Source of the DNA: Desulfatiglandales bacterium
GTDB lineage: Bacteria > Desulfobacterota > DSM-4660 > Desulfatiglandales > Desulfatiglandaceae
Direction: 5' to 3'
NCBI GenBank assembly: GCA_963666345.1
Contig: OY762721.1
Location: forward strand, 1,536,001 to 1,600,000
DNA: 64,000 nt
Translations under genes and position numbers: made by a program
In this document: positions 6,698-32,970 of the stretch, piece after piece
Numbering within the stretch: position 1 is the stretch's first letter
Layout of the letters: each line of letters starts with the position of its first letter
The notes under the pieces: model-generated
Databases searched by the model: none
Told to the model about the DNA's origin: nothing
Seen by the model: the letters and a program-made list of their open reading frames with translations, nothing else

Positions 6698-6768
6698 TCA
6701 CTCACTGCGGGCATCTTTCTTATTTTGAAACAATCGAGATCTTTTGTCCGGTCACCCATGTTTATCAG

Positions 6769-6799
6769 GTAAAACCGATAAATTCATGGGTGTCCCCCT
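6769..6799 (+). repeat. Cassette-delimiting motif copy L1 (part of a hairpin at 6751-6794)
   Basis: GTAAAACCGATAAATTCATGGGTGTCCCCCT. Confidence 0.85.
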
Positions 6800-6839
6800 T
6801 ATCGCTGCGTCAAAACAGCTTGCATCCCCTGTTTTTAAT

Positions 6840-6855
6840 GACTATAATTATAGTC
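6840..6855. promoter_or_regulatory. Probable TA operator palindrome
   Basis: Perfect palindrome GACTATAATTATAGTC containing TATAAT, upstream of the antitoxin. Confidence 0.6.
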
Positions 6856-6881
6856 TAAATGGGATGTAAAGGAGACCAGCA

Positions 6882-7154
6882 ATGACCAGAACCATTTCAC
6901 TTGCCGAGGCAAAAAAAAGCCTTTCCGCCATTGTAAAGGATGTTGATGAAAAATACGACCGCTTCGCCATTACAAGAAACGGCGTGAGTAAGGCCGTGCT
7001 CCTTAGCAGCGATGAATTCGAGGGGCTCCTTGAAACCATCGAAATTCTTTCAGCCGCGGAGGAGCGTGACGCCATAGCAAGGGCAAAGAAACAGGTGAGA
7101 TCGGGTGAAACCGTTTCTATCAGGAAAATCAGGGAAAGGTACGATATCGATTAA
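6882..7154 (+). CDS. Phd/YefM antitoxin
   Basis: ISLAEAKKSLSAIV..V....ITRNG...AVLLS..E pattern. Confidence 0.9.
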   Translation: MTRTISLAEAKKSLSAIVKDVDEKYDRFAITRNGVSKAVLLSSDEFEGLLETIEILSAAEERDAIARAKKQVRSGETVSIRKIRERYDID

Positions 7155-7417
7155 TGCCCCACTCTATTGAATTCTCAAAAGAGGCCGCACGGGACATCGA
7201 TGTCCTTTACTCTTCAGATAAAAAGCTCTTTACCAGAATAATCAACAAGATTGAATCTCTTGAGGAAACTCCCTTTGAAGGCAAACCCCTTGTGGGCAAT
7301 CACAGGGGTGAGTTCTCCTTGAGGGTGGGAAATTACCGCATCGTCTATGAAACCGATTCCCCGGCAAAAACCGTCTACATACTCACCATCAAACACCGAA
7401 GGCATGTGTACAAGTAG
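7154..7417 (+). CDS. RelE/ParE family toxin
   Basis: 87 aa; GKPLVG, LRVGNYRIVY, ILTIKHRRHVY; coupled to the antitoxin. Confidence 0.9.
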   Translation: MPHSIEFSKEAARDIDVLYSSDKKLFTRIINKIESLEETPFEGKPLVGNHRGEFSLRVGNYRIVYETDSPAKTVYILTIKHRRHVYK

Positions 7418-7476
7418 CCGATATTTTTAATGGGTATCCGCTTGATACGGTCGTTATCATAAAAAAATGAGTGGAA

Positions 7477-7498
7477 ATACCACGCAATTGCGTGGTAT
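7477..7498. promoter_or_regulatory. Probable operator palindrome of the MNT-HEPN operon
   Basis: Perfect 22-bp palindrome ATACCACGCAATTGCGTGGTAT, 11 bp before the ATG. Confidence 0.6.
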
Positions 7499-7509
7499 AA
7501 ACACGCAAT

Positions 7510-8097
7510 ATGGATACATTGAATACGATATTATCTTCCCGCACCCGCGCTGAAATCTTCAGGCTCCTTTTCGGCACCGTCGAGGAGGAGCTTCACCTTC
7601 GTGAGATCCAGCGCCGTTCCGGACTTAACGACAGCACAATCCGTCAGGAATTGCGTAAACTGCTTCAACTCGATCTGGTAAAGGGGCGAAAGGACAGTAA
7701 CAGGATCTATTACAGTGGCAACAGATCACACCCTCTCCATCCTGAAATCCGGAATATGGTTTTAAAGACTGTAGGCCTTGCTCAAGTCCTGAGAGACGCC
7801 CTTCAGGACGAACGGATTGAAGTGGCCTTTGTCTTCGGCTCTGTTGCAGAGGGCAAGGCAACCGCCGACAGTGATATTGACCTCTTTGTAATTGGAGATC
7901 TGGGCCTGCGCTCACTTTCAGAACTGCTCTCAGACACCTCCGAAAAAATCGGAAGAGAAATCAACCCTCACGTGATGAATGTAAGTTCCTTTCTTAAAAG
8001 GGTCGAAACCGGTGAACATTTTGTTTCCAGCGTAATCGAATCGCAGAAATTGTTCATAATCGGGACTGAAAATGACCTTAAAGCAATGGGCCGATAA
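7510..8097 (+). CDS. wHTH + minimal nucleotidyltransferase (MNT antitoxin)
   Basis: N-terminal HTH; FVFGSVAEG..SDIDLFVIG NTase motif. Confidence 0.88.
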   Translation: MDTLNTILSSRTRAEIFRLLFGTVEEELHLREIQRRSGLNDSTIRQELRKLLQLDLVKGRKDSNRIYYSGNRSHPLHPEIRNMVLKTVGLAQVLRDALQDERIEVAFVFGSVAEGKATADSDIDLFVIGDLGLRSLSELLSDTSEKIGREINPHVMNVSSFLKRVETGEHFVSSVIESQKLFIIGTENDLKAMGR

Positions 8098-8511
8098 CGG
8101 CTGGCTGACTTCTCATAAATCAAGTGCACAGGAAATAGGCAATCTCCTGGCTATTGTCGAGCGCGACATTAAAGACGCTTCTAAAAGAACCATTTCCGCG
8201 GATTGGCGCTTTGGGATCGCCTATAATGCCGCTTTAAAACTTTGCACCATCCTTCTTTATGCCGAAGGCTACAGGGCGGAAAGAAACCTTCAGCATTACC
8301 GTACTATTCAGGCCCTGCCACTCATCTTGGGACAAGAGAAAAAAAGGATGCAAATTACCTGGACACATGCCGCTCAAAAAGGAACATCGTCGAATACGAT
8401 TACGTTGGAGGGGTCACGGAAGAAGATGCGGAAGAACTCATTGATTTTGCAGAAGGCCTGAAAGAGGAAGTTGAAGTATGGCTTGAAAAAAGGCATCCGC
8501 TACTTGCATAG
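8072..8511 (+). pseudogene. HEPN-like toxin, frameshifted at an A7 run (8339-8345)
   Basis: The frame from 8072 (WRFGIAYNAAL..QHYRT) continues in the -1 frame as DANYLDTCRSKRNIVEYD..DAEELI; coupled to MNT. Confidence 0.75.
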
Positions 8512-8570
8512 GGAAAACTCCCGCTGAACCTCCAATCGTCACCTCACCGACAAATTACGCTTAAATTCAG

Positions 8571-8601
8571 GAGAAACTGATAATTTCATGGGCGTCCCCC
8601 T
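8571..8601 (+). repeat. Cassette-delimiting motif copy L2
   Basis: GAGAAACTGATAATTTCATGGGCGTCCCCCT. Confidence 0.95.
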
Positions 8602-8680
8602 TATTGCTTTAAGGGGAGAAACCGGCAGATCAATAATAGCTGCCCTATCATTTTTACATCAATATTGATGTTGACCAGCC

Positions 8681-9034
8681 ATGGAATTTACTATAGAATT
8701 TTATGAAACCAGCTCGGGTAGATCCCCTGTGCGTGAGTTTCTTGATAAGATCAAGGGATCCAGTCCCGATGATTTTGCGATGGTCCTGGCAGGGCTGGCA
8801 AAGCTCCGAAAAAGTAATTATCACAAGGCACCTCTATCAAAACCGATAGGGAACGATCTTTTCGAATTGCGACATGTCGGCAGGTTGAATACCAGAATCT
8901 TATACTTTTTTATGAAAGGAAGACGGATAATCCTTGTCCATGGCTTGAGGAAAAAGACAAGAGCCATCCCCGCCGGCGACCGGCAGGTTGCCATGGAGAG
9001 GAAAGAAGACTGGCTGAAGAGGAATACAACATGA
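8681..9034 (+). CDS. HigB/RelE (Gp49-like) toxin
   Basis: FYETSSGRSPVREFL, LFELR, RILYFF..RIILVHG.RKKT; palindrome ACATCAATATTGATGT at 8656-8671 upstream. Confidence 0.9.
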   Translation: MEFTIEFYETSSGRSPVREFLDKIKGSSPDDFAMVLAGLAKLRKSNYHKAPLSKPIGNDLFELRHVGRLNTRILYFFMKGRRIILVHGLRKKTRAIPAGDRQVAMERKEDWLKRNTT

Positions 9035-9378
9035 AGGGAAAAACAGACTTTGACCGCTACCTTGAAGATCAATTGAAAAATCCCGAATTTGCCGCACGAT
9101 TCAAAAAGGCCGGCCAGGCCTGGGAGATTGCCATGCAGCTTGCCGCACTGCGTAAGGAATCAGGCTTATCTCAAAAGGAACTCGCAAATCGTCTCGGGAC
9201 ATCTCAGCAACAGATCAGCCGTCTTGAATCACCTGGCTATGAGGGGCATTCCCTGAGCATGATACGTCGATTTGCCGATGAACTGGGAGCTGCAGTCCAG
9301 GTAAGGATTGTAAAAAAGAGGCATACTGAAAAACTCGCCATCGCGGAAAAAAAGGGAGAATACCTGAACAAAACCTGA
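9031..9378 (+). CDS. HigA-like XRE HTH antitoxin
   Basis: LRKESGLSQKELANRLGTSQQQISRLES. Confidence 0.9.
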   Translation: MKGKTDFDRYLEDQLKNPEFAARFKKAGQAWEIAMQLAALRKESGLSQKELANRLGTSQQQISRLESPGYEGHSLSMIRRFADELGAAVQVRIVKKRHTEKLAIAEKKGEYLNKT

Positions 9379-9384
9379 TTTCCG

Positions 9385-9424
9385 GATGATGCCTTCGGCC
9401 CTGCATGTCGCAGGGCCGAAATAT
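9385..9424. repeat. Hairpin repeat (copy 2)
   Basis: GATGATGCCTTCGGCCCTGCATGTCGCAGGGCCGAAATAT, similar to 2993-3032. Confidence 0.75.
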
Positions 9425-9620
9425 CCTGTCAATCCTGTTAATCAAGCGAAGCGGGAGGTTGATAACTCCTTTTTCTTCCTCGAAATACACCGACTTTTTT
9501 GCAATTACTCTGCAAAATATCCGCATCCGCCTTGCAAAAAAGGCCGTTAACTTTACATAAAGTCATTTGAAATTCAAGCGCTACACTGAGCATAAACATC
9601 TGATGTGAACTAAATATCAG

Positions 9621-9651
9621 GAGAAAAGCATAAAATCATGGGCGTCCCCCT
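9621..9651 (+). repeat. Cassette-delimiting motif copy L3
   Basis: GAGAAAAGCATAAAATCATGGGCGTCCCCCT. Confidence 0.95.
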
Positions 9652-9892
9652 TATCTTTTTATGGTACAATAAATGTCCGATTATCATCCGGCATTTTGCG
9701 GAAATCATCCTATTTATTGCCATCCCAGCCGGTGCATAGACTCACTCAAGGGCCAGGCCAATTTTCAAAGAAATCTGCCCGAATCAGGCAGGGATCAGGC
9801 AACCTGGTTGAAATCGGTCATAAATTGTGACCGGTTCCAATCAGCAACATATGAGGCCACCATACAAAACCATCAGGATCAGGAAGTATAAA

Positions 9893-10417
9893 ATGCCCGG
9901 TCTTTTGCCTATTGAAAGAATCATCGAAAGGATTCATCTCATAAGAGGTATAAAGGTTATGATAGACAAGGATTTGGCACAGCTCTATGGTGTGGAAACA
10001 AAAGTCCTGAAGCAGTCTGTAAGAAGGAATATAAGACGGTTTCCCTCAGATTTCATGTTTGAACTGACAACACAGGAATATCAGTTTTTAAGGTCACAAA
10101 ATGTGACCTTAAAGAGAGGGCAGCACTCAAAGTACCCACCCTTTGCCTTTACAGAACAGGGAGTAGCAATGCTTTCATCAGTTCTTAACAGCGAGCGCGC
10201 AATAAATGCAAACATCCAGATCATGAGGGCATTTACACAGCTACGCCAGGTTTTGGCAGGACATGAGGACTTGAAAAGGAAGATAGAAGATCTTGAAAAA
10301 AAGTATGACCCCCAGTTCAGCGTAGTATTTGACGCAATCAAGGCCTTGATGGAAGAAGATCAAAAACCCCGAAGAAAAATCGGATTTGTGATAAAGGATA
10401 AAAAAGAGACTCACTGA
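9893..10417 (+). CDS. ORF6N domain DNA-binding protein
   Basis: IRGIKVMIDKDLAQLYGVETK..VRRNIRRFPSDFMFELT; PFAFTEQGVAMLSSVLNS. Confidence 0.92.
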   Translation: MPGLLPIERIIERIHLIRGIKVMIDKDLAQLYGVETKVLKQSVRRNIRRFPSDFMFELTTQEYQFLRSQNVTLKRGQHSKYPPFAFTEQGVAMLSSVLNSERAINANIQIMRAFTQLRQVLAGHEDLKRKIEDLEKKYDPQFSVVFDAIKALMEEDQKPRRKIGFVIKDKKETH

Positions 10418-10442
10418 AAGATATGTGGTTTGTAACATAAGG

Positions 10443-10474
10443 GGAAAAACGCATAAAATCATGGGCGTCCCCCT
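10443..10474 (+). repeat. Cassette-delimiting motif copy L4
   Basis: GGAAAAACGCATAAAATCATGGGCGTCCCCCT. Confidence 0.93.
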
Positions 10475-10903
10475 GTCATAGGGCTATCTGATGCCCTTAA
10501 GGATGAAGAGAGGCTCGCAAATTCTTTTGCAGACAGCATCACCCCTCTTCTTATTCCAGAGATACAAATTCATGCCTGGCGCGACAGGGAACTGATCGTC
10601 GTTACGGTACCTCATACTGCAGGGCCTTTTTACATTAAGGCAGAGGGTCTTGAAAACGGTGTTTACATAAGGTTAGGTTCTACGAACCGTAGGGCAGGCT
10701 CTGAAATGATCGCTGAACTCCAGCGACTTGCACGCAACTCTTTCTTTGATGAAAAGCCTTTCCCGGAAATCAACTCGGAAGATATTGACTTCCGAGCAGC
10801 TTCCGAGTTCTTTTCTGCTGTAGCCCGTAAATTGACATCTCCAAGAATGGAATCTCTTGGTCTAGTTGTCGATCACGGTGGAAACAGCAGCAGGGCTTTT
10901 TAA
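10475..10903 (+). pseudogene. Internal fragment of an AlbA_2/ATP-binding (RecG-like regulator) gene
   Basis: Open frame from the first base after L4: VIGLSDALKDEERLANSFADSITP..GVYIRLGSTNRRA..SFFDEKP; no start codon or RBS, and truncated at the 3' end. Confidence 0.7.
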
Positions 10904-10926
10904 AGAAAATTAAAGATGACATATTG

Positions 10927-10960
10927 GAGAAAAAACGCATAAAATCATGGGCGTCCCCCT
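10927..10960 (+). repeat. Cassette-delimiting motif copy L5
   Basis: GAGAAAAAACGCATAAAATCATGGGCGTCCCCCT. Confidence 0.93.
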
Positions 10961-11033
10961 GTCATGGACAGGCAACCGATGCCTCAAATTTCGATCTCAT
11001 AACCTGGCTTGTCACCAAATCAGGAAAAGGCTG

Positions 11034-12500
11034 ATGGCTGATCTCAAAGCGCTTATAAAACAGGGAGAAGGCGTTTCTATTGAATTCAAGGAATGTAGAC
11101 GAGCCCTTAACCGGGATGTTTATGAGACCGTCTGCGCGTTTCTCAACCGTCACGGTGGAAACCTGCTCCTCGGGGTCAGTGATGCCGGTGAAGTTACCGG
11201 TGTTGATCCGGACTGCATTGCTAACATTAAAAAAGACTTTGTAACGACCATTAACAATCTGCAGAAACTCCATCCTCCTGCCTATTTGTCAGTCGATGAG
11301 GTTGATATAGAAGGCAAGACGGTCTTGCGCATTTATGTGCCGGAGAGTTCACAGGTCCACCGCTGCAACGGGCGAATTTACGACCGCAATGAAGACGGTG
11401 ACCTCGATATTACGGATCATACCCGGCAGGTAGCCGACCTGTATCATCGCAAACAATCCAGCTACTCGGAGAACAAGATCTATCCGCATGCAGGTCTTGA
11501 AGATCTGCGGTCCGACCTCATTGATAAATGCCGCAGACTTGCAGGTGTCTGGCGAGAGGGGCATCCCTGGCTTGATATGGACGATATGGAGCTGTTGAAA
11601 AGCGCGCAACTCCACCAGACGGACCCTGAAACAGGCAAAAGAGGCATCACCTTGGCCGGCATACTACTGCTCGGTAACGACCAGCTCATTTTAACGGCGG
11701 TACCGCATCACCGGACCGATTTGATCCTGCGCAAGGTCAACCTGGATCGCTATGATGACCGGGATTTGGTGTGCACCAACTTGCTCGAAAGTTATGACCG
11801 TATTATTGCCTTTGTGCAGAAGCATTTGCCGGACCCCTTTTTTCTGGAGGGAATGGAACGTATCAGCATTCGCGATACCATCTTTCGTGAGGTAGCCTCC
11901 AACATCTTGATTCACCGGGAATTCACCAACGCTTTCCCTGCCAAGTTGATTATCGAGCGTGGTCAGGTACGCACCGAAAACAGCAACAAGCCTAATGGGT
12001 TCGGCGTCCTCGACCCGGCCACTTTCACTCCATTCCCCAAGAATCCTGTGATCGGCGCATTTTTCCGGGAAATTCACCGCGCTGATGAACTAGGCTCCGG
12101 AATGCGTAAGATGATGCGCTATGGCAGGGCCTATGGCGGTGCCGATCCGGAAATGATCGAAGGCGATGTGTTTAGAATCGTTGCCAAGACTCCGGAATTC
12201 AGCGCAACAGGTGAAGGGGAAGTCACCCCCCATGTCACCCCCCATGTCACCCCCCATGTCACCCCCCATGTAAAAAAGCTGCTTAAGATTTGTGAGGGTG
12301 AGAAAGGAAGGGCGGAACTACAGGAGTTGCTAAATATAAAAGACAGGAAGTATTTCCGGGAATCTTATTTAACCCCTTCATTTGAAATCGGATTTATTGA
12401 GATGACTATTCCGGATAAACCTCAAAGTCGACTACAGAAATACCGGCTGACGGCAAAAGGAAAGGCATGGTTGGATAAGAATAGGGATAAGGGAAAATAA
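11034..12500 (+). CDS. AlbA_2 (Schlafen-like) + HATPase-like + C-terminal HTH protein
   Basis: GEGVSIEFKE, ETVCAFLN.HGGNLLLGVSD, REVASNILIHREF, DELGSG, PDKPQSRLQKYRLT; start moved to 11034 because the track start lies inside motif L5. Confidence 0.85.
   Translation: MADLKALIKQGEGVSIEFKECRRALNRDVYETVCAFLNRHGGNLLLGVSDAGEVTGVDPDCIANIKKDFVTTINNLQKLHPPAYLSVDEVDIEGKTVLRIYVPESSQVHRCNGRIYDRNEDGDLDITDHTRQVADLYHRKQSSYSENKIYPHAGLEDLRSDLIDKCRRLAGVWREGHPWLDMDDMELLKSAQLHQTDPETGKRGITLAGILLLGNDQLILTAVPHHRTDLILRKVNLDRYDDRDLVCTNLLESYDRIIAFVQKHLPDPFFLEGMERISIRDTIFREVASNILIHREFTNAFPAKLIIERGQVRTENSNKPNGFGVLDPATFTPFPKNPVIGAFFREIHRADELGSGMRKMMRYGRAYGGADPEMIEGDVFRIVAKTPEFSATGEGEVTPHVTPHVTPHVTPHVKKLLKICEGEKGRAELQELLNIKDRKYFRESYLTPSFEIGFIEMTIPDKPQSRLQKYRLTAKGKAWLDKNRDKGK
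12222..12269 (+). repeat. In-frame 12-bp tandem repeat x4 (VTPH)
   Basis: GTCACCCCCCAT x4, perfect. Confidence 0.95.
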
Positions 12501-12590
12501 GTTGATAAGATTGGATCATCTCCAAAAGAGTTGATCTAAATGAAGGATTCTTCGCTCCGCTCAGTCCCACTGCTTCGCAGCGGGTTCCCA

Positions 12591-12652
12591 GTTTCGAAGG
12601 GTCAAGGGTTCGCGGGTTCGAGTGAAACGCTTAAAAATTACAAAGAGTTAAA
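12591..12652 (+). repeat. Octamer-repeat leader plus decayed start of a four-helix-bundle-type gene (copy 2 at 32070-32130)
   Basis: GGTTCGAG-like octamers, then GAAACGCTTAAAAATTACAAAGAG (xLKNYKEL). Confidence 0.5.
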
Positions 12653-12780
12653 CATCCAGGAATTGGTCATTTCCGGATATTGCTTTCAGCCATCAGCAAA
12701 TGACAAATAAGTTGATATTCCGGATCTGTTACTGACAGCTGAGCGCTGAGAGCTGATAGCTGATAGCTTGAGCCTATAAT
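12651..12780. repeat. Palindromic heptamer-repeat element (copy 2 at 28201-28374)
   Basis: CATCCAG.AAT..TCATTTC..TTCAGCCATCAGC ... CTGAGCGCTGAGAGCTGATAGCTGATAGC. Confidence 0.7.
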
Positions 12781-12922
12781 TCATTTGACTTTCCCGCTTC
12801 ATTCTTATTAGCCTGTATCGGTTTGTACTAAAAATATTTTTGAAAATTCTTGTTTTTTGCACGATTTTGTATTTAATCTGTATTTCCCTGCGAACATTTT
12901 TTCAGACTCACGCTGACGCAAA

Positions 12923-13165
12923 ATGCAAAAAAACAGGCCTGCCGCAAAAGATAGATTCACCGGATGCCTCATCGGGCTTGCAACAGCAAACGCCCCCGGC
13001 ACAACACTAGAGTTTAACCCTCCCCCTACATTTGAACCGATAAGCGATATCACCGGCGCCTTTTACGGATATGAGGGTATCCCAAACGAATGGATTTAAA
13101 AAATCGCCATAAGTGATATTATAGAGGAAACAGCAGCAGGACTTTTTAAAGGCGAGGGGAAATGA
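12923..13165 (+). pseudogene. Internally deleted ADP-ribosylglycohydrolase (DraG-like)
   Basis: DRFTGCLIGLATANAPGTTLEF..FEPISDI joined directly to the C-terminal GAFYGYEGIPNEWI*KIA; stop at 13097. Confidence 0.7.
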
Positions 13166-13244
13166 TCTATCGGGAGATAAATGGATAATCTCACGGGTGT
13201 CCATATAACCATTAACACTTCAACCAAAATATAGGCAAAATTTT

Positions 13245-13589
13245 ATGAAAGAATTGATTCAAAAGTTGAGAAATTTCGCAAAAGAAAGAGAATGGGAACA
13301 ATTCCATTCGCCCAAAAACCTTGCCATGGCACTGAGCGTTGAAGTTGCTGAGATTGTCGAAATATTTCAATGGTTGACACAGGAGGAAAGCAAAAACTTA
13401 AGGCCAGATGTATTGCAAAAGGTCAAAGAAGAAATTGGGGATGTAACGATATTCCTTACGAATTTAGCAGACAAACTTGGGATTGATCTTTTAGCGGCTG
13501 CAATGGAAAAGATTGAAGTCAACGAGCGGAAATATCCCGTGGATAAAGCAAAGGGAAGTGCCAAAAAATACACGGAATTTGAAAAATGA
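13245..13589 (+). CDS. MazG-like nucleotide pyrophosphohydrolase
   Basis: FAKEREWEQFHSPKNLAMALSVEVAEI..EEIGDV..KYP. Confidence 0.92.
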   Translation: MKELIQKLRNFAKEREWEQFHSPKNLAMALSVEVAEIVEIFQWLTQEESKNLRPDVLQKVKEEIGDVTIFLTNLADKLGIDLLAAAMEKIEVNERKYPVDKAKGSAKKYTEFEK

Positions 13590-18874: not shown

Positions 18875-18878
18875 CCGT

Positions 18879-24989: not shown

Positions 24990-25057
24990 GCAAAAAATAA
25001 TAACGTAATTTTTTGATTACGTCAAGCCTCCCTCTATGTAATATATACCCATCTATC

Positions 25058-25088
25058 AGGGGGACGCCCATGAAATTATCAGTTTCTT
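25058..25088 (-). repeat. Cassette-delimiting motif copy R2
   Basis: AGGGGGACGCCCATGAAATTATCAGTTTCTT. Confidence 0.95.
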
Positions 25089-25170
25089 TGAATCGCCATA
25101 CCTGAAAATCTCTGCTTGAGGCCGGATGTTTCTTGACTCAATACCATTCAATTTTATTCTATATACCCCT

Positions 25171-25839
25171 TTAAAGTCCCAAAAGTTTTTTTGACAAACT
25201 GTGCAATTCTGAATTTGCAAGCGCAACCACCTTCTTTTTTACTCTCCGGGAGTAATATTCCTGTTCTGTCTTTGTGAGGGGAAGGCCTTCAAGTTTCTTT
25301 TTAAACAGCTCCTTTTGTTTTGGAGAAAATATTTGCGAAAGGGCATACTCCAGGGATAATTCTTCATATTTTGCTGTCCTCTGTTTGTCCTTTTCTGCCT
25401 TCTTTTCAAAATAGAGTTCGAATAACCCTTTCACACGCTCTGCATTAAGCTTGATGTCGCTGAATTCCAGAGTCTGGTTATGTGCTAAACGATTCCTCAA
25501 TTTCCTGACCAGTGTCTTATCTTCATCTGTAAACTTGTTTTTCAGGCTGTTCCACCAGGGAAAGGAAAGGTGGTAAAAGGAATATAGCGATCCGGAAAAC
25601 AGTATCAAATGATGAAATCGAAGCTTCTGTTCTTTTGTAGTTAACTGCTCTTCTACCTGTCCCGGATCAAACTGATAGCTTTCAGCAGCATTTGCCAGCA
25701 ATACAGGAAAACCTTCCCATAATCTGGTATCACACTCCCTGACTACTCTTGCCAGGGTTTCCCTGGCATCAAAGTCTTCTTCCGGCTCCAGCATGGGAAA
25801 ACCCAGTTTTGATAAGCTGGTCAAAAACTTACTGTCATT
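25171..25839 (-). CDS. Hypothetical protein, partner of the nucleotidyltransferase
   Basis: ORF coupled to the upstream NTase; RLWEGFPVLL, FSPKQKEL..LTKTEQEYYSR. Confidence 0.7.
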   Translation of the reverse strand, partial: NDSKFLTSLSKLGFPMLEPEEDFDARETLARVVRECDTRLWEGFPVLLANAAESYQFDPGQVEEQLTTKEQKLRFHHLILFSGSLYSFYHLSFPWWNSLKNKFTDEDKTLVRKLRNRLAHNQTLEFSDIKLNAERVKGLFELYFEKKAEKDKQRTAKYEELSLEYALSQIFSPKQKELFKKKLEGLPLTKTEQEYYSRRVKKKVVALANSELHSLSKKLLGL

Positions 25840-26422
25840 CATAAAGCCCCTCTCTTCGTAACAATTCGAGGAAGTGGTCAATGTTCGGCCTCAATCGATC
25901 TTCTCCCACATCGTAACCAACCAATTCATGAAAATGCGCGATAAGCTTTTCTATATCGATCTCCTTTTGCCGGTACTCCACTAACCTCAGACAGTCTTCG
26001 AAATCAACATTGGTTCCCCTCATCAATTTGCTGGAAATCAGGTCATAATCATTGAGGATGCCGATATAAAGATAAGAAAATTCCTTAAGTATAGAATGCC
26101 TGCCCATCTCAAGAGGGTTAACAAGCAGTTCTGTCGTGTGAATCCGATTACCCTGGAAAAGATCGAAGCGAAAATTCTCTCCGGCTCGTTGCCACCCTGA
26201 ACCTGTTATCTGCTTGTACCCCAGGTCCTTTAATTGTTTCGTCAGGTAAGCATATTCTCTAGCCATGGGAACCATAAAATCCACATCTTTGGTCGAGGGT
26301 TTGATCCCAATCAGAGTCATTGCCGTTCCACCGCAGGCAATGAGTTGTACTTTTCGCCTGAGGAAGCGATTCCAATCTTCCATGATATCAAGAAGCCGAT
26401 CTTTACCTAACCTATATTTCAC
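25835..26422 (-). CDS. AbiEii/DUF6036-like nucleotidyltransferase
   Basis: CGGTAM....KPSTKDVDF, SKLMRG..DFED. Confidence 0.75.
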   Translation of the reverse strand: MKYRLGKDRLLDIMEDWNRFLRRKVQLIACGGTAMTLIGIKPSTKDVDFMVPMAREYAYLTKQLKDLGYKQITGSGWQRAGENFRFDLFQGNRIHTTELLVNPLEMGRHSILKEFSYLYIGILNDYDLISSKLMRGTNVDFEDCLRLVEYRQKEIDIEKLIAHFHELVGYDVGEDRLRPNIDHFLELLRREGLYE

Positions 26423-26721
26423 TTGTATTAAAACCTACAAATTGTTGTCATTATATAATCATTTTATTGTACTATATGATACAAATTAAACTAATTTTTG
26501 TCAACAAATACACTCAGATATTTTTAGCAGCAATATTTCATGAAATTATTCCGGATTCCTTGATGGCGAAAACCTGTAATTTTAGATTTTTAACTAATTT
26601 GTAATATTATAATCAGTTTATTGTATATTTTAATTCAATTATTTGTACGATATAATACAATTTAATATAAGAACAAGCCGTGTAACCAAAGAAGAGGGTC
26701 ACATCTTGATTTGCCAGGATT

Positions 26722-26752
26722 AGAGGGACGCCCATGAAATTATCAGTTTCTC
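26722..26752 (-). repeat. Cassette-delimiting motif copy R3
   Basis: AGAGGGACGCCCATGAAATTATCAGTTTCTC (1 mismatch to L2). Confidence 0.95.
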
Positions 26753-27021
26753 ACGGGGTTTTCGCTGATTGGAAATGACTTTCGAGAAATCACATGGGCG
26801 GAACAATACAGCCAAAGGGAACTAAAGGAAGTCTCAAATGGATTCAGCATGTGGTTAATGACTTTCCATACGTGTTGAGCAGGCCCTTAATTGATGCAAT
26901 TGTATGATATGAGGGACGTTATCGGCTATCGTGACAAACTCCCGATGAAAAAATGATAAAATTGTTATCACGGTTCACTCTGAGGTGTATAATAGAGTTT
27001 TTATAAAGGGAGGATAATAAA

Positions 27022-27312
27022 ATGGCACAAGATCCGGGAATAGGTAAAAAAGTTGTGGCCACAATTACAGGTGTAAATGGTGAATGCAGTGCCGGGCATA
27101 AGGCAGGCGATACCTTTACGATCAGCTGCCATAATCCCGCCGGGCTGTGTGGTTTCTTTTATCACGATATTTTCCCCAGCCTTTCCACGTTCCAGTTCGG
27201 GGGCTCTCTGCCGTGGTGGAAAGGCGATACGATTGAGCTCCAATGTCCCGATAATAACATTGTCACGTTAAAATTGGAGAGATTCGAGAGGAAGTGGTGT
27301 AACAAAGTTTAG
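27022..27312 (+). CDS. TIGR04076-like Cys-rich small protein
   Basis: GECSAGHKAGD, GLCG..YH, QCPD. Confidence 0.75.
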   Translation: MAQDPGIGKKVVATITGVNGECSAGHKAGDTFTISCHNPAGLCGFFYHDIFPSLSTFQFGGSLPWWKGDTIELQCPDNNIVTLKLERFERKWCNKV

Positions 27313-27493
27313 GCCCGCTTATTTTGAGGATAAGGACGCTGAAAACTGAAAGAGGAGGTGCTTATTGAGAGATGCCTGAACCGTAGAGGGGGACGTAGGG
27401 TCCGAAACAACCTATGAAAATTCATTACGAATTGCCCTCTTTCCTCTCCGTCTCAGACATGACGGGCCAAAGGCGTTTACAGAAAAATCAGCT

Positions 27494-28135
27494 ATGGGAA
27501 AAGAATATGACATCGTAGCAAAGTTTTATGACCCTTTGCTTTATTTTTTCATGAAGCCCGTAAGAAAGGCGTTACTGAATGAACTCCTGACGCACAAGGA
27601 TAAAGCCATTCTGGATATCTGCTGCGGCACAGGCAATCAAGTAAAGCTTCTGGCAGAACACGGGTTCACTAATCTTCATTGTCTGGATTCATCCGCTTCT
27701 ATGCTGGAAATAGCAAAAAAGTCCGATTATCCTATCCACATCTATAATCAAGACGCTACAAAAACAAATTTTGATAATGAATCTTTTGATGTCGCGATTA
27801 TCAGTTTCGCGCTCCATGAAAAAGACAGAACCACCCAGGAAAACTTCATCAAAGAAACCCATAGACTGTTAAAGAATGACGGCATTTTACTGGTTGTTGA
27901 TTTTGCCTTTGATGAGTTAACTGCTATATTCAGTAAAATCGGAATAATTCTCGTGGAAAGACTGGCAGGCGGGGAGCACTATTCGTATTTCAAGAGCTAC
28001 ATCCAAAATAATGGCCTGTCAAGCTTGATTAAAGAAGATAAATTTATACTCATAAAAAATTTTCGAAAGCTTTTCGCTGGAGTCATCGTATCATTATATC
28101 GGAAAGTTCAGGACATAGATGCATTCTGTTTGTAA
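27494..28135 (+). CDS. Class I SAM-dependent methyltransferase (UbiE-like)
   Basis: ILDICCGTG, FDVAIISFALHE. Confidence 0.88.
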   Translation: MGKEYDIVAKFYDPLLYFFMKPVRKALLNELLTHKDKAILDICCGTGNQVKLLAEHGFTNLHCLDSSASMLEIAKKSDYPIHIYNQDATKTNFDNESFDVAIISFALHEKDRTTQENFIKETHRLLKNDGILLVVDFAFDELTAIFSKIGIILVERLAGGEHYSYFKSYIQNNGLSSLIKEDKFILIKNFRKLFAGVIVSLYRKVQDIDAFCL

Positions 28136-28200
28136 ATGGGGGCATCCGTAAATAAGTAAACAACTCAAAATAGCGCGCATCCATAACCATTTACTTGGGC

Positions 28201-28374
28201 TTAGGTAGTTTCCATCCAGAAATGAATCATTTCTGAATGTTGCCTTCAGCCGTCAGCTATCAGCAGGTAGCCAACAAATTTATATCTCAACTGTTTTACT
28301 GAGCGCTGAGAGCTGATTGCTGATAGCGTGAGTCCGTAAATCTTGATTTATGGATGAGCACTAGGTAGTAGGAC
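28201..28374. repeat. Palindromic heptamer-repeat element (copy 2)
   Basis: TAGTTTCCATCCAGAAAT ... ATTTATGGATGAGCACTAG ends; internal TCAGCCGTCAGCTATCAGC / GCTGAGAGCTGATTGCTGA. Confidence 0.7.
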
Positions 28375-28422
28375 CCTCCAGAGGCAGGGAAATAGTTTAT
28401 CAATAATTGAAAGGAGGAAAAA

Positions 28423-28749
28423 ATGGAGAAAAAATGGACCTACAAAAATTATGAGATTGAAGAAGGATTAAGACCCGGGAGTTCAAAGTTTCAATATTTT
28501 TTCGTTGTTTCCGAAAAGGGTGTGAAAAAGAGTAATTACTGTGTCTGGTTAAAGGATGATGCTTTATCCCGTTTTGATCAATCTGAAAATTTTGATACGA
28601 TTATCTCGTCTCAAAGAGAAAACTGGGTCAAATGGATTAAGGAAAAAATTGATGCGCAGGATTTTCAAAATCGCGCTTTAAAATTTGATAAGACAGGTGA
28701 AATGGAGATAAACCTGTCTGAAATGAAGGAACATATCACCATGGATTAA
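28423..28749 (+). CDS. Hypothetical protein
   Basis: 108-aa ORF with strong RBS AAGGAGG. Confidence 0.7.
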   Translation: MEKKWTYKNYEIEEGLRPGSSKFQYFFVVSEKGVKKSNYCVWLKDDALSRFDQSENFDTIISSQRENWVKWIKEKIDAQDFQNRALKFDKTGEMEINLSEMKEHITMD

Positions 28750-28853
28750 AAACCGCGGATTCGGAAAGGGGTCAGATCTACGCTTGACTGTTGCCGGCTT
28801 TTAAAAAGGTGACGCCCTCAAATAACTCAAGATAGAATGAAAGACCGCAGATT

Positions 28854-28884
28854 AGGGGGACGCCCATGATTTTATGCTTTTCTC
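28854..28884 (-). repeat. Cassette-delimiting motif copy R4
   Basis: Exact reverse complement of L3. Confidence 0.95.
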
Positions 28885-28933
28885 TTATAGGAAAGAAGCA
28901 GCCATATAAGATTCAGCCAACCATGTCTCATAC

Positions 28934-29545
28934 CTATGGATGGGGTATTATCATTTCTTTTGTGTCTTCGACAAGTTGTATCAGGCAGCCTACTGCCTCT
29001 TTAATCGCCTCTTTCGGGTCAACTCCCAATGATTCTGCATTGAGCGTGTTATTTAAATAGTATTTGACCAGATAATTCTTGTCGTCTTCATCAGGAAAGA
29101 CATGATACCTTTCAAGTAACTCCGACTTCCTTTTCTCAGTAACGGCACGCAGTCTGTCTTCCCATTTCTGTATCTTCTGTTTCATGTTCTTGGGCGTTTT
29201 ATCAGGCAGGTTGTAATAGAGGTAGGCCCAAAGACCGTCTTCCCTATTTTCCGCCGTAAGGGAGTCCCAGTTGAAATATTCAATCCCGTAAAAAAGACCC
29301 ATCTCATGCTTTCCGTCATAATATTGCTTAGGGGTCAAGGTAACTTCATCTTCATTTTCTTCATATTCCCATTCTATCTCACCATGAAAAGGCATCTCAT
29401 TTATTCTTCGCCCCAGTTCCCTGAAAACTTCACTTCTCAGCCAGTCAGGAACCCGCTTTTCCGCTTGAGAACAACTTTCCTTCAAGGCTTCCACGGCCTT
29501 GAGGTTTTTTACAATAAAGTCACATTCCTGGTTGACAATAATCAT
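28934..29545 (-). CDS. Hypothetical protein
   Basis: 203-aa ORF with RBS AAGGAG, in an operon with the upstream gene. Confidence 0.7.
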   Translation of the reverse strand: MIIVNQECDFIVKNLKAVEALKESCSQAEKRVPDWLRSEVFRELGRRINEMPFHGEIEWEYEENEDEVTLTPKQYYDGKHEMGLFYGIEYFNWDSLTAENREDGLWAYLYYNLPDKTPKNMKQKIQKWEDRLRAVTEKRKSELLERYHVFPDEDDKNYLVKYYLNNTLNAESLGVDPKEAIKEAVGCLIQLVEDTKEMIIPHP

Positions 29546-29565
29546 ATCTATTCTCCTTACCTGTT

Positions 29566-30372
29566 TTAGAAAAGCCAGCTTGAGCCGAAAAAGTGCCTCA
29601 AGGCACCGATCCCGTTACTGTCAATTTTTGTAGACTCCGCGATACTGCCCAGTTCCTCCCAGATTATTTGATTCAGTTTATCTCTCGATAGATTAATAAA
29701 TTTACCGCTTTTTGACTTTGTGCCGTATGGCGTGACAAAATAGGCGGCAATGTTCTTTTTGGATACCCCCATGGTTTCGGCAAATCCCTGTAAATCTTCC
29801 CATTCCCTTACCGTTTGAGGCCTGCCGGTCTTATGAGATGTTTCAGAGCCTGATTTTACCTTCAGCTCTATATCAATTATCACGTTTTCATCTGAAAAGT
29901 CCCTTGTAGATATCCTTATGTCTATACGGGAATTATCACCACTCTGCTCCCGCCTGACTGAGATATCTTCTTCCTTTTTTCTCTCTACAATCAATGCTAT
30001 TTTTTCCTTTCCGGTTTCTTTCAACAGCCTGACAATAATAGATTTTCCAAATGGAGACTTCTTAGGGTTTAACATATCGGCCGTGATGTCGCTGATTGCA
30101 TCTTCCCCTAATTTCAATCTCAATTCCCGGAAAAGATCATACTGCACGGCCTTTAAAAAGAAAGGCTTTTTCTTATAGGCTTCAACCAGTCCCCTTGTCA
30201 GGGAAAAACGTTCTTCTTTTCTTTGAAATGACTTTTCAAACAGGCCTGAGTCCTTGTAATTTTCAATCAAGATTTTAATGGTTTCATATCCTGAGGCAGG
30301 AGAAAACCGGCGTGTATAATCTTTCATCAGATTTTTTACGGCGGTAAATTTGAGCGGATCAGATTTTTTCAT
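29566..30372 (-). CDS. PD-(D/E)XK nuclease-like protein
   Basis: VRRE..SRIDIRI..VIIDIELKV..SE..Q..Y/FVTP pattern. Confidence 0.65.
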   Translation of the reverse strand: MKKSDPLKFTAVKNLMKDYTRRFSPASGYETIKILIENYKDSGLFEKSFQRKEERFSLTRGLVEAYKKKPFFLKAVQYDLFRELRLKLGEDAISDITADMLNPKKSPFGKSIIVRLLKETGKEKIALIVERKKEEDISVRREQSGDNSRIDIRISTRDFSDENVIIDIELKVKSGSETSHKTGRPQTVREWEDLQGFAETMGVSKKNIAAYFVTPYGTKSKSGKFINLSRDKLNQIIWEELGSIAESTKIDSNGIGALRHFFGSSWLF

Positions 30373-30484
30373 ATTCTTCCCGATTATTTTTATTATGATC
30401 CATTACCAGAAAAAGACTCAGAGATAAACCCCGCTCATATCTTGACACCAGGTTTTCCCGCCGCAAATTTCTGAAACACCCTTT

Positions 30485-30515
30485 AGGGGGACGCCCATGA
30501 TTTTACGTGTTTCTT
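30485..30515 (-). repeat. Cassette-delimiting motif copy R5
   Basis: AGGGGGACGCCCATGATTTTACGTGTTTCTT. Confidence 0.92.
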
Positions 30516-30703
30516 TGGATTGATAATGCCTGGAAATCTCTATTTGATAATAGATGTTCCTTGACTGAACGCCATTCATCTGCTTTTTCTATAACCGTCT
30601 CATGAACTGTTACTTTCGCCCTTTAAAATGAGGGACACGAAGGGCGACGACATTGCGTTAAAAAACTACTGTTCTAAAGTATTGAAAGGCCGGGGAATTT
30701 GAA

Positions 30704-31507
30704 ATGAGATTAAAATTCGATCCTTTTCAGATCTTTCAAAACAGCCTGACACCAGCGGGTCTCTATGCGAGGAAGAAGTGGCTGGATCAGGGCATAGGAA
30801 AAAACTGGCAGAGCGACTATAATAGAACGGTTTCAGAACTGCTTCACAGACAGGCTGACGATGGTTCCTGGGATCAATCTCCCCTCCTTACAATCAGAAG
30901 GCTCTTTGGTCTTCACCTTACGGTCCGGGAGCGAACCGCACCGATCGAAAAATCACTCCATTGGCTTTTGGAGTGCTGCATGGCTCAGTTTCCCGGAAAG
31001 CGCCTTGTTCTGGATGATCGGTTGACCTACCGGGTACTCCGTGACCTTCCCTTCAGCCCCGGATGTTCAGGTTATTTCTTATATGGTGCCGCTCTTTTCC
31101 TTTCGACTATCTTCGGCATGGAAAAGGACGAGCGGGTTCTGTTTATGTATCAGGCCCTCGCCGAATCGGGCATAAAATACAAGGGTCGCTGGTGCGGGTT
31201 ATCTAGCACAAACAATATCTTGAGGGCCTTTATCGTTCATCCGGAATTTGCTTCTCATAAAGCAACCAGGCTTGCTGTCGAGGCCCTTGCCTGCCGGCAG
31301 AAACCATCCGGTTCCTGGAAAAGGCCCGTTCCTTTTTACCAGACAGTCAACGCACTTGCCCATTTGAACCTGGAAAGCGCTGAAGCTCAAATCAAAGCGG
31401 CATTTAAAAGGGCTTATCGTTCACAGAATAAAGACGGGTCCTGGGGCACGGTCAACAAGGAGTGGAATACCTTTCTGGTTGTTCACGCATTAAAGAATTA
31501 CGGGTGA
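30704..31507 (+). CDS. Prenyltransferase/squalene-cyclase repeat protein
   Basis: Three QxxxGSW motifs. Confidence 0.65.
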   Translation: MRLKFDPFQIFQNSLTPAGLYARKKWLDQGIGKNWQSDYNRTVSELLHRQADDGSWDQSPLLTIRRLFGLHLTVRERTAPIEKSLHWLLECCMAQFPGKRLVLDDRLTYRVLRDLPFSPGCSGYFLYGAALFLSTIFGMEKDERVLFMYQALAESGIKYKGRWCGLSSTNNILRAFIVHPEFASHKATRLAVEALACRQKPSGSWKRPVPFYQTVNALAHLNLESAEAQIKAAFKRAYRSQNKDGSWGTVNKEWNTFLVVHALKNYG

Positions 31508-31563
31508 AAGACAGGGCACCGGTTCTTCATCCCCGCCAGGTTATTCCCGAGCGTGAATAATTC

Positions 31564-31596
31564 AGGGGCACACGCCCATGAAATTATCAGCTTTAT
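31564..31596 (-). repeat. Cassette-delimiting motif copy R6 (2-bp insertion)
   Basis: AGGGGCACACGCCCATGAAATTATCAGCTTT. Confidence 0.8.
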
Positions 31597-31856
31597 CACA
31601 CGACTCCCGCCAAAGCCCTGAAACGTAAAGCCGCTCAAACTCAGAGATGCGTGGAAAGTGGTTTACCCCTGACAAGCATCAAGTCATAAAACAAATTTGA
31701 ATACATATAATCTTAAACTTTTATCTTGTTTTTTTTGATAAGTAATGATAATTGACTAAAAGTGAGTAAATATTTAGTAAAAAGTGAGGTTATAAGGCGT
31801 CATAAGTGTGCTGCAGGCACACCTTTTTCAGGGGCCGCTTTTTTTGCGGGGCAACC

Positions 31857-32114
31857 ATGGATATCTATCTTGATGAAAGTCGCGACTTGGTATGGACTTT
31901 CGGCAGTCTTTACGGACACGGAGGTTCGAGCAGATATCTGACAATCTCCGCTCTGATCATACCGAAAGACCTTTCCAGGGATGGAAAAATACAGTTCAGT
32001 AAAAGATCAGCAGGGCTGCCTGTCCGCAAGCCGTCTATTCATATCTCCGCAATTACGGTTAAAAAAGAAGGATTCGAGGAGTCAGGGTTTCGCAGGTTCG
32101 AGCAAAACGCTTAA
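31857..32114 (+). pseudogene. Truncated DUF3800-family gene
   Basis: MDIYLDESRDLVWTF....GGSSRYLTI N-terminus; runs into the octamer repeat. Confidence 0.6.
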
Positions 32115-32136
32115 AAAGTTATAAAGAGGTGTCGTA

Positions 32137-32928
32137 TTGGAAAACAGGGACGCGATAAAGAGGCTGTGGTTCAAGGCATTGCTGGAAGCAAACAAAGAAA
32201 CCAGGCCCATGGACTCCCTTTCTTCCGCCTTCGGAGATCTCACCATGGAAGAGGCCTACGAAGTCCAGGACATGTCGGTTAAGGAGAGGCTAAAGAAGGG
32301 CGAACGCGTGATCGGCTGGAAAGTCGGTGCAACCAGTCGGGCCGTCATGGACCAGCTTAAGATAAATGAGCCGATCCTCGGCTGCATGACCAGCCGATCG
32401 GAGTATTCTTTTCTAAACGAGGTCAAGGCCTCTCATTTTTGCAGTCCTGCCGTGGAGGGCGAAATCGCCTTTGTCATGGGGAAACCGCTGAAAGGCCCGG
32501 GGATCACGAGAAAGGACGTGATTCGAGCTGCCGAAGGCATCATGGGGGCCGTGGAACTTGTTGACTGCAGGGTCACGGACTGGCAGTCGACAACCACGGA
32601 AGCCATTGCAGACAACGCCCTGCATGGCGGGATCATGCTGGGGCCTTTTATGAGGCCCATCTCCGGCCTGGATCTGATCCATGAAGGGGTTGTGATGCAT
32701 CGAAACGGTCATCTGCTGGCGAGCGCCTGCGGTGTCGAGGCCCTCGGGGATCCCTTGAACGTCGTGGTGTGGCTCGCCAATAAGCTCGGGGAATCGGGAA
32801 AGGAACTGGATGCCGGGGCAGTCGTTTCCACCGGCTCACTCACCAGATTCTTCTTTGTCAATCCTGGTGACGTGATCGATGTATGCTTCACCAACCTGGG
32901 GCGAATCCACTTCTCAATAGGGGAATAG
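32137..32928 (+). CDS. 2-keto-4-pentenoate hydratase / FAH family
   Basis: EEAYEVQ, GWKVGATS, EGEIAFV, IADNA, LGDPLN..WLANKL, STGS. Confidence 0.9.
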   Translation: MENRDAIKRLWFKALLEANKETRPMDSLSSAFGDLTMEEAYEVQDMSVKERLKKGERVIGWKVGATSRAVMDQLKINEPILGCMTSRSEYSFLNEVKASHFCSPAVEGEIAFVMGKPLKGPGITRKDVIRAAEGIMGAVELVDCRVTDWQSTTTEAIADNALHGGIMLGPFMRPISGLDLIHEGVVMHRNGHLLASACGVEALGDPLNVVVWLANKLGESGKELDAGAVVSTGSLTRFFFVNPGDVIDVCFTNLGRIHFSIGE

Positions 32929-32940
32929 TAGAGTGGGACA

Positions 32941-32970
32941 AGGAGAGCGCCGATGATTTTATGCCCCTCT
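32941..32970 (-). repeat. Degenerate motif copy R7
   Basis: AGGAGAGCGCCGATGATTTTATGC matches R4 at 20/24 by hand alignment. Confidence 0.45.

Follow-up and report, generated by a model that had tools for sequence, protein, structure and literature searches.

Solo copies of a motif matching the terminal inverted repeats of a RAYT-like Y1 transposase gene border toxin–antitoxin and defence modules in a Desulfatiglandales genome

We analysed a 64,000-nucleotide (nt) stretch of the genome of a Desulfatiglandales bacterium (the window; positions are counted from its first letter unless genome positions are specified), in which a 30-nt motif recurs at the borders of toxin–antitoxin (TA) and defence modules of a single island. 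A first reading of the letters alone (the sequence-only reading) had taken the motif for the end of a gene-capture system acting in trans and had noted a likeness to sequences near HUH/Y1 (RAYT-like) transposases. This link was borne out, as some 460 kb from the island a gene with Y1_Tnp and Bac_DnaA_C matches is flanked on either side by an exact copy of the motif, the two copies being in inverted orientation. The motif is very probably the cognate terminal inverted repeat (TIR) of this gene, which encodes a TIRYT, a RAYT-like Y1/HUH transposase with a C-terminal DnaA-type helix-turn-helix (HTH). Comparisons between loci show that the CCCCCT tip of the motif is a preferred junction and that modules between direct copies vary between species. 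The best-supported reading of these data suggests that TIRYT mobilises the modules, although we consider this somewhat more doubtful than probable.

The motif and its cognate transposase gene

The motif has the consensus AGAAACGCATAAWWTCATGGGCGTCCCCCT, as given by a profile of 135 unique copies from many genomes; conservation stops at both ends, and alignment of the flanks of the copies delimits a unit of 30–31 nt. Because the 16-nt core, TCATGGGCGTCCCCCT, was the search key, only the 14-nt 5′ half gives independent conservation. A scan of the window found the core at no more than one mismatch at 6784, 8586, 9636, 10459 and 10945 on the + strand and at 24244, 25058, 26722, 28854 and 30485 on the − strand. 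At up to three mismatches there are 12 matches, a number that none of 100 dinucleotide shuffles reached (mean 0.86), which rules out a chance origin of the copies; the two extra matches, at 48577 and 49400, have three mismatches each and lack the 5′ half. The profile scan detected ten intact copies (E ≤ 2.3e-8 each), and its best match in the window outside the island is at 55676 (E 0.013). This weak match to the 5′ half (55676–55695) lies directly upstream of a GntR-family regulator gene and is either a chance match or a very decayed copy.

The island holds ten intact copies, one that is clearly decayed (R6) and two that are doubtful (L6 and R7). Thus, of the mirror-symmetric set of 11–12 copies first described, with coordinates that were right to within 3 nt, ten are intact, that at 31564 is decayed (E 4.8e-4) and that at 32941 is doubtful (E 1.1). 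All left-arm copies (L1–L6) are on the + strand and all right-arm copies (R1–R7) on the − strand, every CCCCCT tip being directed to the 13.3-kb centre, as the sequence-only reading had stated. It was also correct in describing L2 and R1, and L3 and R4, as exact reverse complements, since the members of each pair are identical across the 31-nt motif. L4 and L5 are identical across 35 nt, and decay is strongest in the copies that lie furthest out (L1, R6 and R7). Spacing from copy to copy is 486–2132 nt, and the copies lie within a 26-kb stretch of low GC content (36–50%, compared with about 53% in the flanks). The claim that no copy lies outside this interval holds for the window but not for the 4.16-Mb genome (G000), in which seven of the 17 intact copies lie elsewhere (genome positions 553561, 2026867, 2027942, 2032121, 2033437, 2044953 and 3361261). 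The motif is not confined to the island, then, but ten of its 17 intact copies are found there. Two solo copies elsewhere in the genome (3361261 and 2030773–2032041) adjoin AAA_14/DUF4143 ATPase genes, and one of the two also adjoins an orphan Cas6 gene (3361395–3362159).

The gene that identifies the motif encodes 339 amino acids (genome positions 2026896–2027915). One of the two exact copies that bracket it lies 27 nt upstream of the ATG, the other has 1 nt in common with the stop codon, and both tips point outward. The protein matches Pfam Y1_Tnp (E 5.2e-10) and, at residues 260–313, Bac_DnaA_C (E 2.3e-6; 27.9 bits, under the Pfam cut-off of 31.5), a stretch that DnaA models match as well. 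It also matches the NCBIfam model REP_Tyr_transpos (NF047646; E 6.6e-16), with 58.5 bits below the cut-off of 80. The sole PDB match by sequence, to a designed repeat protein (E 0.0044), tells us nothing about the function. In the parts of the literature drawn on here, the TIRYT/TIRtron class has GGGG-tipped, non-palindromic TIRs that form moderately abundant families, in dimers and clusters (Di Nocera, De Gregorio & Rocco 2013, PMC3733652); it corresponds to subgroup 2.1.2 of TnpA-Y1 subclass 2.1, which is defined by a C-terminal HTH extension (Bac_DnaA_C, HTH_23 or HTH_28) (Quentin et al. 2018, PMC6006769). Since the class had been described, the sequence-only reading was too strong in presenting the system as unprecedented. 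The tip of our motif, GGGGACGC, fits the published GGGGWSAS at seven of eight positions.

The island copies are closely related to the TIRs of this gene. L3 and R4 agree with them at 30 of 30 positions, and in the remaining eight intact copies the 16-nt core is present at no more than one mismatch, together with the 5′ half. The 13 nt preceding R1 match the last 13 nt of the TIRYT gene, including its stop codon. TIRYT homologues (E ≤ 1e-20) occur in 46 of 61 related genomes, with up to 17 matches per genome, and at 19 of 24 TIRYT loci the gene is adjoined by an inverted repeat of its own, tipped GGG(G)AC/GGGGA, which differs between paralogues. In G000 the gene is the sole close copy of a Y1_Tnp plus Bac_DnaA_C protein. 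The HUH histidines (H-x-H) and the tyrosine of RYIHLNP are invariant in all 19 aligned relatives, this protein included, and it retains every family-invariant residue. A tree was built from 19 TIRYT proteins after manual removal of seven homologue loci, in most cases because of in-frame stops or contig ends. All six proteins with this TIR are found on the same side of one branch (support 69/83); this grouping was found in 70% of bootstrap trees, and none of 500 label shuffles scored as low. Given the exact inverted copies on both sides of the gene and the retention of the invariant residues, the G000 TIRYT is the likely enzyme acting in trans on the solo copies.

We then followed the motif into other genomes. 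The core at no more than one mismatch occurs in 15 of the 61 relatives, counting G000 itself, and among the others more than three copies were found only in G033 (8) and G018 (4). In G033, three copies form a direct array with HigB/HTH, BrnT/CopG and DUF2283 modules. A scan of a larger collection with the bare 16-mer gave at least 124 stretches, most of them single matches in unrelated GC-rich taxa; as a few hundred chance matches were estimated in its 596 Gb, single matches were treated as chance. The copy-rich genomes that it revealed are a Desulfosalsimonadaceae metagenome-assembled genome (MAG; G061, 28 copies), a Desulfobacteraceae MAG (G063, 21 copies) and Geomonas paludis (G065, 17 copies). 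In G061 and G063, too, copies of the motif bracket the cognate TIRYT gene, and on both sides there are additional copies that point away from it. Altogether, the motif is physically tied to Y1 genes in at least ten loci (in G000, G061, G063 and seven or eight metagenome loci). The same TIR in a different bacterial order, that of Geomonas paludis, hints at horizontal spread.

The motif is also part of longer repeats in these genomes. G061 and G063 have unusually many intergenic repeats, and in both the motif frequently forms the 3′ terminus of a roughly 170-nt element (loci L230, L233, L236 and L239); the body of this element, some 140 nt long, is found on its own as well. G063 has a further repeat of about 155 nt in more than 40 copies. 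On contigs C29 and C30 of G. paludis (loci L226 and L227), the motif lies within a longer repeat with 8-nt inverted flanks, GGAGGCAG and CTGCCTCC, and two Y1_Tnp open reading frames (ORFs) end exactly at motif tips.

A metagenome scan yielded 117 stretches, from which 76 loci were analysed; eight of these represent the window's species or a 97% relative. The other 68 loci (median length 2.6 kb) hold 90 copies, with 245 ORFs within 900 nt. Within that distance of a copy, type II TA families are encoded at 21 of the 68 loci (19 of 61 once duplicate contigs are merged), other defence-type families at five, and Y1_Tnp or DnaA_C at eight. The TA ORFs are mostly on the motif strand (26 of 30).

Junctions at the motif tip and competing explanations

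We compared the fetched loci with each other and recorded where homology ends, using high-scoring segment pairs of at least 250 nt and less than 99% identity. Thirty of 298 unique internal breakpoints fall within 6 nt of the CCCCCT tip, compared with 1.2 expected and with five at the other end of the motif. One site shows the presence and absence of a whole module: between the same two genes, G063 has a single motif and G061 has two direct copies that enclose a 1.68-kb Phd/MNT/HEPN module. The flanking DNA there is 89–93% identical (syntenic DNA of the two genomes overall, 89–94%), and about 50 nt are duplicated. The two genomes also have in common a 1.3-kb module with both of its motifs (94.8% identity) in different surroundings, and their synteny stops 3 nt past the tip of the 5′ TIR of the TIRYT gene. 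Within the window, an AlbA_2-type frame opens 4 nt past the tip of L4 with its 5′ part missing, so that the L4 tip is a breakpoint inside a gene. Differences between related genomes do break at the motif, as the sequence-only reading had expected; the variants in contigs of the same and related strains, described below, do not.

How might an end sequence of a transposase gene come to separate TA and defence modules? We suggest that the CCCCCT tip could be the active end, at which TIRYT would cut one strand, and that a resident solo copy could serve as the landing site. A unit consisting of DNA and a 3′ motif would be joined just past the resident tip, leaving the upstream copy intact and placing a second direct copy after the new DNA; the reverse reaction would remove the unit and leave one copy. 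Such a reaction would be akin to IS200/IS605 'peel and paste', which is likewise strand-specific, except that the element would insert at a further copy of its own end. If repeated, it would build direct arrays with modules in the orientation of the motif, as well as divergent arrays around TIRYT genes; in G000 and G061, the copies around the TIRYT genes do diverge from the gene, as this predicts. If two facing resident copies, L1 and R7, both grew inward, the mirror layout and the decay gradient would be explained, although a single inversion of half of one direct array explains the mirror layout equally well. Gene capture and the building of a bidirectional array, as proposed in the sequence-only reading, may describe how the array arose. 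Taken as a whole, the reading that the motif is the TIR of TIRYT and that TIRYT inserts and removes modules at its tip falls just short of an even call in our estimation. We propose more tentatively still that TIRYT could act as the 'integrase' of a single-stranded-DNA cassette-accretion system, in which the 30-nt end would be both landing site and 3′ module tag; integron-like TA and defence arrays would then form without attC or IntI, by nested inward growth between facing copies.

Several observations weigh against module mobilisation by TIRYT. A large share of the 30 tip breakpoints simply mark where TIRYT genes end, and presence of the motif was the basis on which the loci had been selected. 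The G061/G063 indel fits a deletion by homologous recombination between the direct repeats of about 50 nt equally well, and the two genomes also differ by an element of about 130 nt with a motif copy but no gene, which G061 has and G063 lacks at the orthologous site. In same-species metagenome contigs (99.5–99.8% identical), the array is unchanged, and the variants in contigs of the same or related strains (98–99.5% and 97%), a 153-nt deletion and a replacement of the GmrSD region, are not at the motif. The proportion of metagenome loci with TA families (21 of 68) is a raw count, uncorrected for genome-wide TA density, and TA ORFs flank the nearest copy both ways, with 19 located 3′ and 11 located 5′ of it. 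Housekeeping-type genes are also among the neighbours of copies: many copies beyond G000 lie next to ordinary genes, and several of those elsewhere in G000 lie next to genes such as UbiA, Lgt and glycosyltransferases. A blastn comparison with the other fetched loci detected none of the window modules, nor did Logan contigs, which end at repeats as an effect of assembly, contain an excision product, a circle junction or an empty donor site for any window module. When seven copies were folded as single-stranded DNA, no hairpin was seen (z −1.11 to +0.92 relative to shuffles), in which the motif is unlike the substrates of studied Y1 transposases. To our knowledge, no activity or role has been shown for any TIRYT since the class was described in 2013.

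Some other comparisons complete this picture. The contig with the replaced GmrSD region (L324) is 96–97% identical to window positions 20011–21881 and 24076–24291 and has 1.1 kb of other DNA in place of 2.2 kb holding GmrSD; the right edge of the replacement is about 170 nt before the R1 tip. A few contig joints near tips (10474 to 12725 in X6, 9652 to 12544 in X3) have short sides or involve other repeats and were not counted. The M20 peptidase and HtrA-like genes that flank the island never share a contig in the 61 relatives, all of which belong to other genera, and one candidate orthologous site (L271) was rejected because it has only the yhbY gene in common with the window. A convergent pair of copies occurs in only one of 16 multi-copy metagenome loci, which makes the convergent arms of the window unusual.

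Several of the points listed above are shared by the strongest rival explanation, according to which passive TIR copies spread as small non-autonomous elements (solo, tandem or inverted-dimer, like REPINs or miniature inverted-repeat transposable elements) and persist in the intergenic DNA of dispensable islands, while modules arrive by other routes and homologous recombination makes the indels. The cargo-free element of G061, the housekeeping-type neighbours and the stability of the array across same-species contigs all speak for it, and the duplication of about 50 nt at the G061/G063 indel suffices for recombination. It also accounts for inverted dimers, 55–67 nt apart and gene-free, in five of the 16 multi-copy metagenome loci and for tandem copies, 31–48 nt apart, in three more; inverted dimers are found in G061, G063 and G065 as well. 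By contrast, it does not explain the bias of breakpoints to the outer tip (30 versus 5), as recombination within a repeat should favour neither edge. The predominance of the motif strand among neighbouring TA ORFs and the gene cut 4 nt past a tip are likewise left unexplained, and only half a dimer is present at each of the ten window sites. We regard this account as doubtful, though a serious contender.

Regulation offers another explanation, in which the copies would be operators for the HTH of a (perhaps domesticated) TIRYT or of another factor, or outward promoters, that co-regulate TA and defence operons. The copies are co-oriented with the adjoining genes in the window and with 26 of the 30 TA ORFs of the metagenome loci, and lie 3–300 nt upstream of operons; the motif contains a TAAWWT hexamer that resembles a −10 box, and the TIRYT protein has a DNA-binding HTH. 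Yet a sigma-70-like match that uses this hexamer exists at only two of the ten copies (L4 and L5), the −35 region is unconserved, several modules have separate promoter-like sites between motif and genes, and R1 and R4 face convergent genes. Regulation would, in addition, leave the tip breakpoints and the module indel unexplained; we consider it improbable. Finally, a tyrosine recombinase encoded elsewhere might use the copies as its sites, in an atypical integron or CALIN array or as Xer-type modules. This is suggested by the cassette-like, TA-rich layout, as in sedentary chromosomal integrons, and by an integron integrase gene in the genome, but is largely refuted and very improbable, given that this gene is 183 kb off, has an in-frame TGA and no motif copy near it, that the motif has neither dyad symmetry nor a hairpin, that the island has no attC-type paired cores, and that the motif is instead tied to Y1 genes in at least ten loci.

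Two further possibilities were rejected. The reverse complement of the motif reads like a ribosome-binding site followed by ATG, but no ORF of at least 50 amino acids starts there, and two motif variants encode unlike peptides. A replication-strand bias was dismissed because the GC skew switches near 2.14 and 0.12 Mb, outside the window, and both orientations lie on one replichore. A search of positions 5000–35000 against Rfam gave no match at E ≤ 0.1.

Gene modules of the island

The outermost left copy, L1 (6770–6799, +), lies 72 nt past the stop codon of a core-genome M20 peptidase gene and is divergent, with six of 30 positions off the consensus (E 2.3e-8). The first module (6800–8571, +) encodes a Phd antitoxin (6882–7154) and a ParE/RelE-type toxin (7154–7417), followed by an HTH-nucleotidyltransferase (7510–8097) and its partner (8072–8461), which PADLOC assigns to the pair PDC-M05A/B (the partner being PDC-M05B). 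It ends at the intact copy L2 (8572–8601, +). Between L2 and L3 (9622–9651, +; intact), the second module (8602–9621, +) has genes for a Gp49/HigB-type toxin (8681–9034) and an HTH antitoxin (9031–9378). The third, beyond L3 (9652–10444, +), has a gene for an ORF6N-domain protein (9827–10417; PADLOC PDC-S05). The intact copy L4 (10445–10474, +) is followed by the 5′-truncated AlbA_2-type ORF (10478–10903, +), which covers profile positions 47–117 of 118 (E 2.1e-4, under the Pfam cut-off). L5 (10931–10960, +) is the innermost intact copy of the left arm.

The central core (10961–24243) encodes an AlbA_2/Fic-like_C protein, an ADP-ribosylglycohydrolase remnant, a MazG-like protein, a Schlafen-type helicase, IS21, an S24 peptidase-like protein, an Mrr type IV restriction enzyme, HNH and GmrSD. 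It includes the doubtful, decayed copy L6 (13177–13206, +), which matches at 21 of 30 positions and is not listed by the profile scan; 77 nt there are 71% similar to the stretch ending in L5, and the 47 nt ahead of L6 resemble those ahead of L5. The ADP-ribosylglycohydrolase remnants (12923–13176 and 10880–10930) comprise an N-terminal piece with a weak Pfam match (E 0.0044) and a C-terminal tail ahead of L6, which also precedes L5 (26 nt, 96%). The same tail in front of both copies suggests that 'gene tail plus motif' was duplicated on the arrival of the AlbA_2 segment.

Other repeats occur in the core. An IS21-family element (15481–17865) with perfect 29-nt terminal inverted repeats carries istA (16273–17790) and istB (15555–16286), both on the − strand, and in related metagenome runs its depth is far above that of its surroundings. 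Within the AlbA_2/Fic-like_C gene, the 12-nt unit GTCACCCCCCAT is repeated four times in tandem (12222–12269), encoding (VTPH)4. The non-coding stretch after the AlbA_2 gene (12171–12837) contains two other repeat families (45 nt, 84%; 44 nt, 86%), with partial copies at 32073–32117 and 28299–28342. In four runs its contig depth is 10–20 times that of its neighbours, with variable AAGGGGTC-like units, which gives it the look of a small repeat of a different type that is widely distributed.

The right arm begins with the intact copy R1 (24244–24273, −), its innermost. The module between R1 and R2 (24274–25057, −) has two small ORFs, 24669–24989 and 24379–24672. The sequence-only reading had identified BrnTA here, but we found no BrnT match, and the ORF at 24379–24672 is only weakly CopG/Arc-like (E 7.5e-4). 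After the intact R2 (25058–25087, −), the next module (25088–26721, −) encodes a DUF6036 nucleotidyltransferase (25835–26422) and a 236-amino-acid partner (25171–25881) with no significant family match. R3 (26722–26751, −) has one core mismatch, and the module beyond it (26752–28853) has its genes on the + strand, opposite to the motif; they encode a TIGR04076-family protein, a SAM methyltransferase (27494–28135) and a 108-amino-acid ORF. The intact R4 (28854–28883, −) precedes a module (28884–30484, −) with a PDDEXK_4 nuclease gene (29566–30372) and a gene for a 203-amino-acid partner (28934–29545), again with no significant family match. R5 (30485–30514, −) has an intact core and a divergent 5′ half; R6 (31566–31595, −) is decayed, with an altered tip (E 4.8e-4 for the profile match at 31572–31592), and the doubtful, strongly decayed R7 (32941–32970, −) forms the island's right edge, matching at 21 of 30 positions without significance in the profile scan. 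The genes first named were thus mostly confirmed, with the exception of BrnTA: Phd-ParE/RelE, a nucleotidyltransferase pair, HigB/HTH, ORF6N, an AlbA_2 fragment, the DUF6036 nucleotidyltransferase and the PDDEXK_4 nuclease. Among the ORFs scanned across the window there is no intI, cas or other recombinase gene except the IS21 istA/istB pair, which agrees with the sequence-only reading that no recombinase gene adjoins the array.

Comparison with known systems

We agree with the sequence-only reading that the motif is not a CRISPR repeat, as its spacings of 486–2132 nt hold genes and its copies have two orientations, whereas CRISPR repeats share one orientation and alternate regularly with spacers of 25–50 nt. 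Nor is it attC-like. An attC site has paired RYYYAAC and GTTRRRY cores, the consensus used in that reading, within a palindrome of 50–150 nt that can fold; a search for RYYYAAC...GTTRRRY over 28 kb returned one weak candidate, inside a coding region (−7.3 kcal/mol over 110 nt). Integron recombination uses single-stranded substrates. Integron arrays, and the arrays lacking an integrase (CALINs), resemble the island in that short sites stand in direct array between one- or two-gene modules, which are co-oriented and TA-rich, and in that the enzyme may sit elsewhere. They differ in that the sites here are not attC, the enzyme would be of the Y1/HUH type instead of IntI, the two arms converge, and there is no attI or Pc. 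An attC/integron identity is ruled out by the lack of paired cores and of a hairpin and by the distance of the only intI. That integrase gene (genome positions 1359039–1359980), 183 kb before the island, matches TIGR02249 with 472 bits against a cut-off of 265 and has one in-frame TGA; its presence implies that the genome has or had a classical integron.

The ends of IS608 are subterminal hairpins, distinct from its 4–5-nt target. In this the proposed system would differ, as its target would be a full copy of the end, and its cargo is not the transposase gene. The enzyme superfamily is the same as that of IS200/IS605 (IS608) elements, and the proposed chemistry would parallel their 'peel and paste' transposition (PMC5027513). 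It would likewise involve strand-specific cleavage at both ends, a circle of single-stranded DNA, and joining to the 3′ side of a specific short sequence, with no duplication of the target. The motif does not belong to the IS200/IS605 family, since it forms no hairpin and the TIRs are inverted, hence on opposite strands.

REP (repetitive extragenic palindromic) and REPIN–RAYT systems, as far as the accounts cited here go, likewise have a single-copy Y1 gene between inverted copies of its own repeat, with further genomic copies presumably handled in trans (PMC2817692, PMC3116915, PMC3333891). The family of our motif includes inverted dimers as well. REPs in those accounts are hairpin-forming palindromes, usually in more than 100 copies and tightly packed in bacterial interspersed mosaic elements, whereas our motif does not fold, has 17–28 copies per genome and is spaced by whole genes. 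Neither end of the consensus has a GTAG or CGTC tag. The lack of a fold and of such a tag, together with the number of copies, only 17, rules out a REP or hairpin identity.

The closest relatives are the TIRYTs/TIRtrons, which, in the portions of their descriptions used here, have a RAYT-like Y1/HUH gene with a DnaA_C-type HTH, non-palindromic GGGG-tipped inverted repeats near the start and overlapping the stop, and extra TIR copies that are single, dimeric or grouped (PMC3733652, PMC6006769). Those portions mention no genes between TIRs, TA or defence cargo, co-orientation with genes or indels at tips; here, 10–13 solo copies mark off modules within a single island, and the gene is some 460 kb distant. 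What is new relative to these accounts (PMC3733652, PMC6006769), as far as they are drawn on here, is an array of solo TIRs that borders TA and defence modules, with turnover at the tip across genomes. The locus and its counterparts give this common transposase family a concrete and testable role, since TA and defence modules meet at its end sequence and differences between species fall at the tip of that sequence. Should the enzyme indeed move modules, cassette arrays would have a second origin, by a mechanism with no relation to that of integrons, and defence islands a new mode of assembly. Should it not, the family would still clearly exemplify how non-palindromic repeats of the RAYT type, at low copy number, can shape accessory islands by way of recombination.

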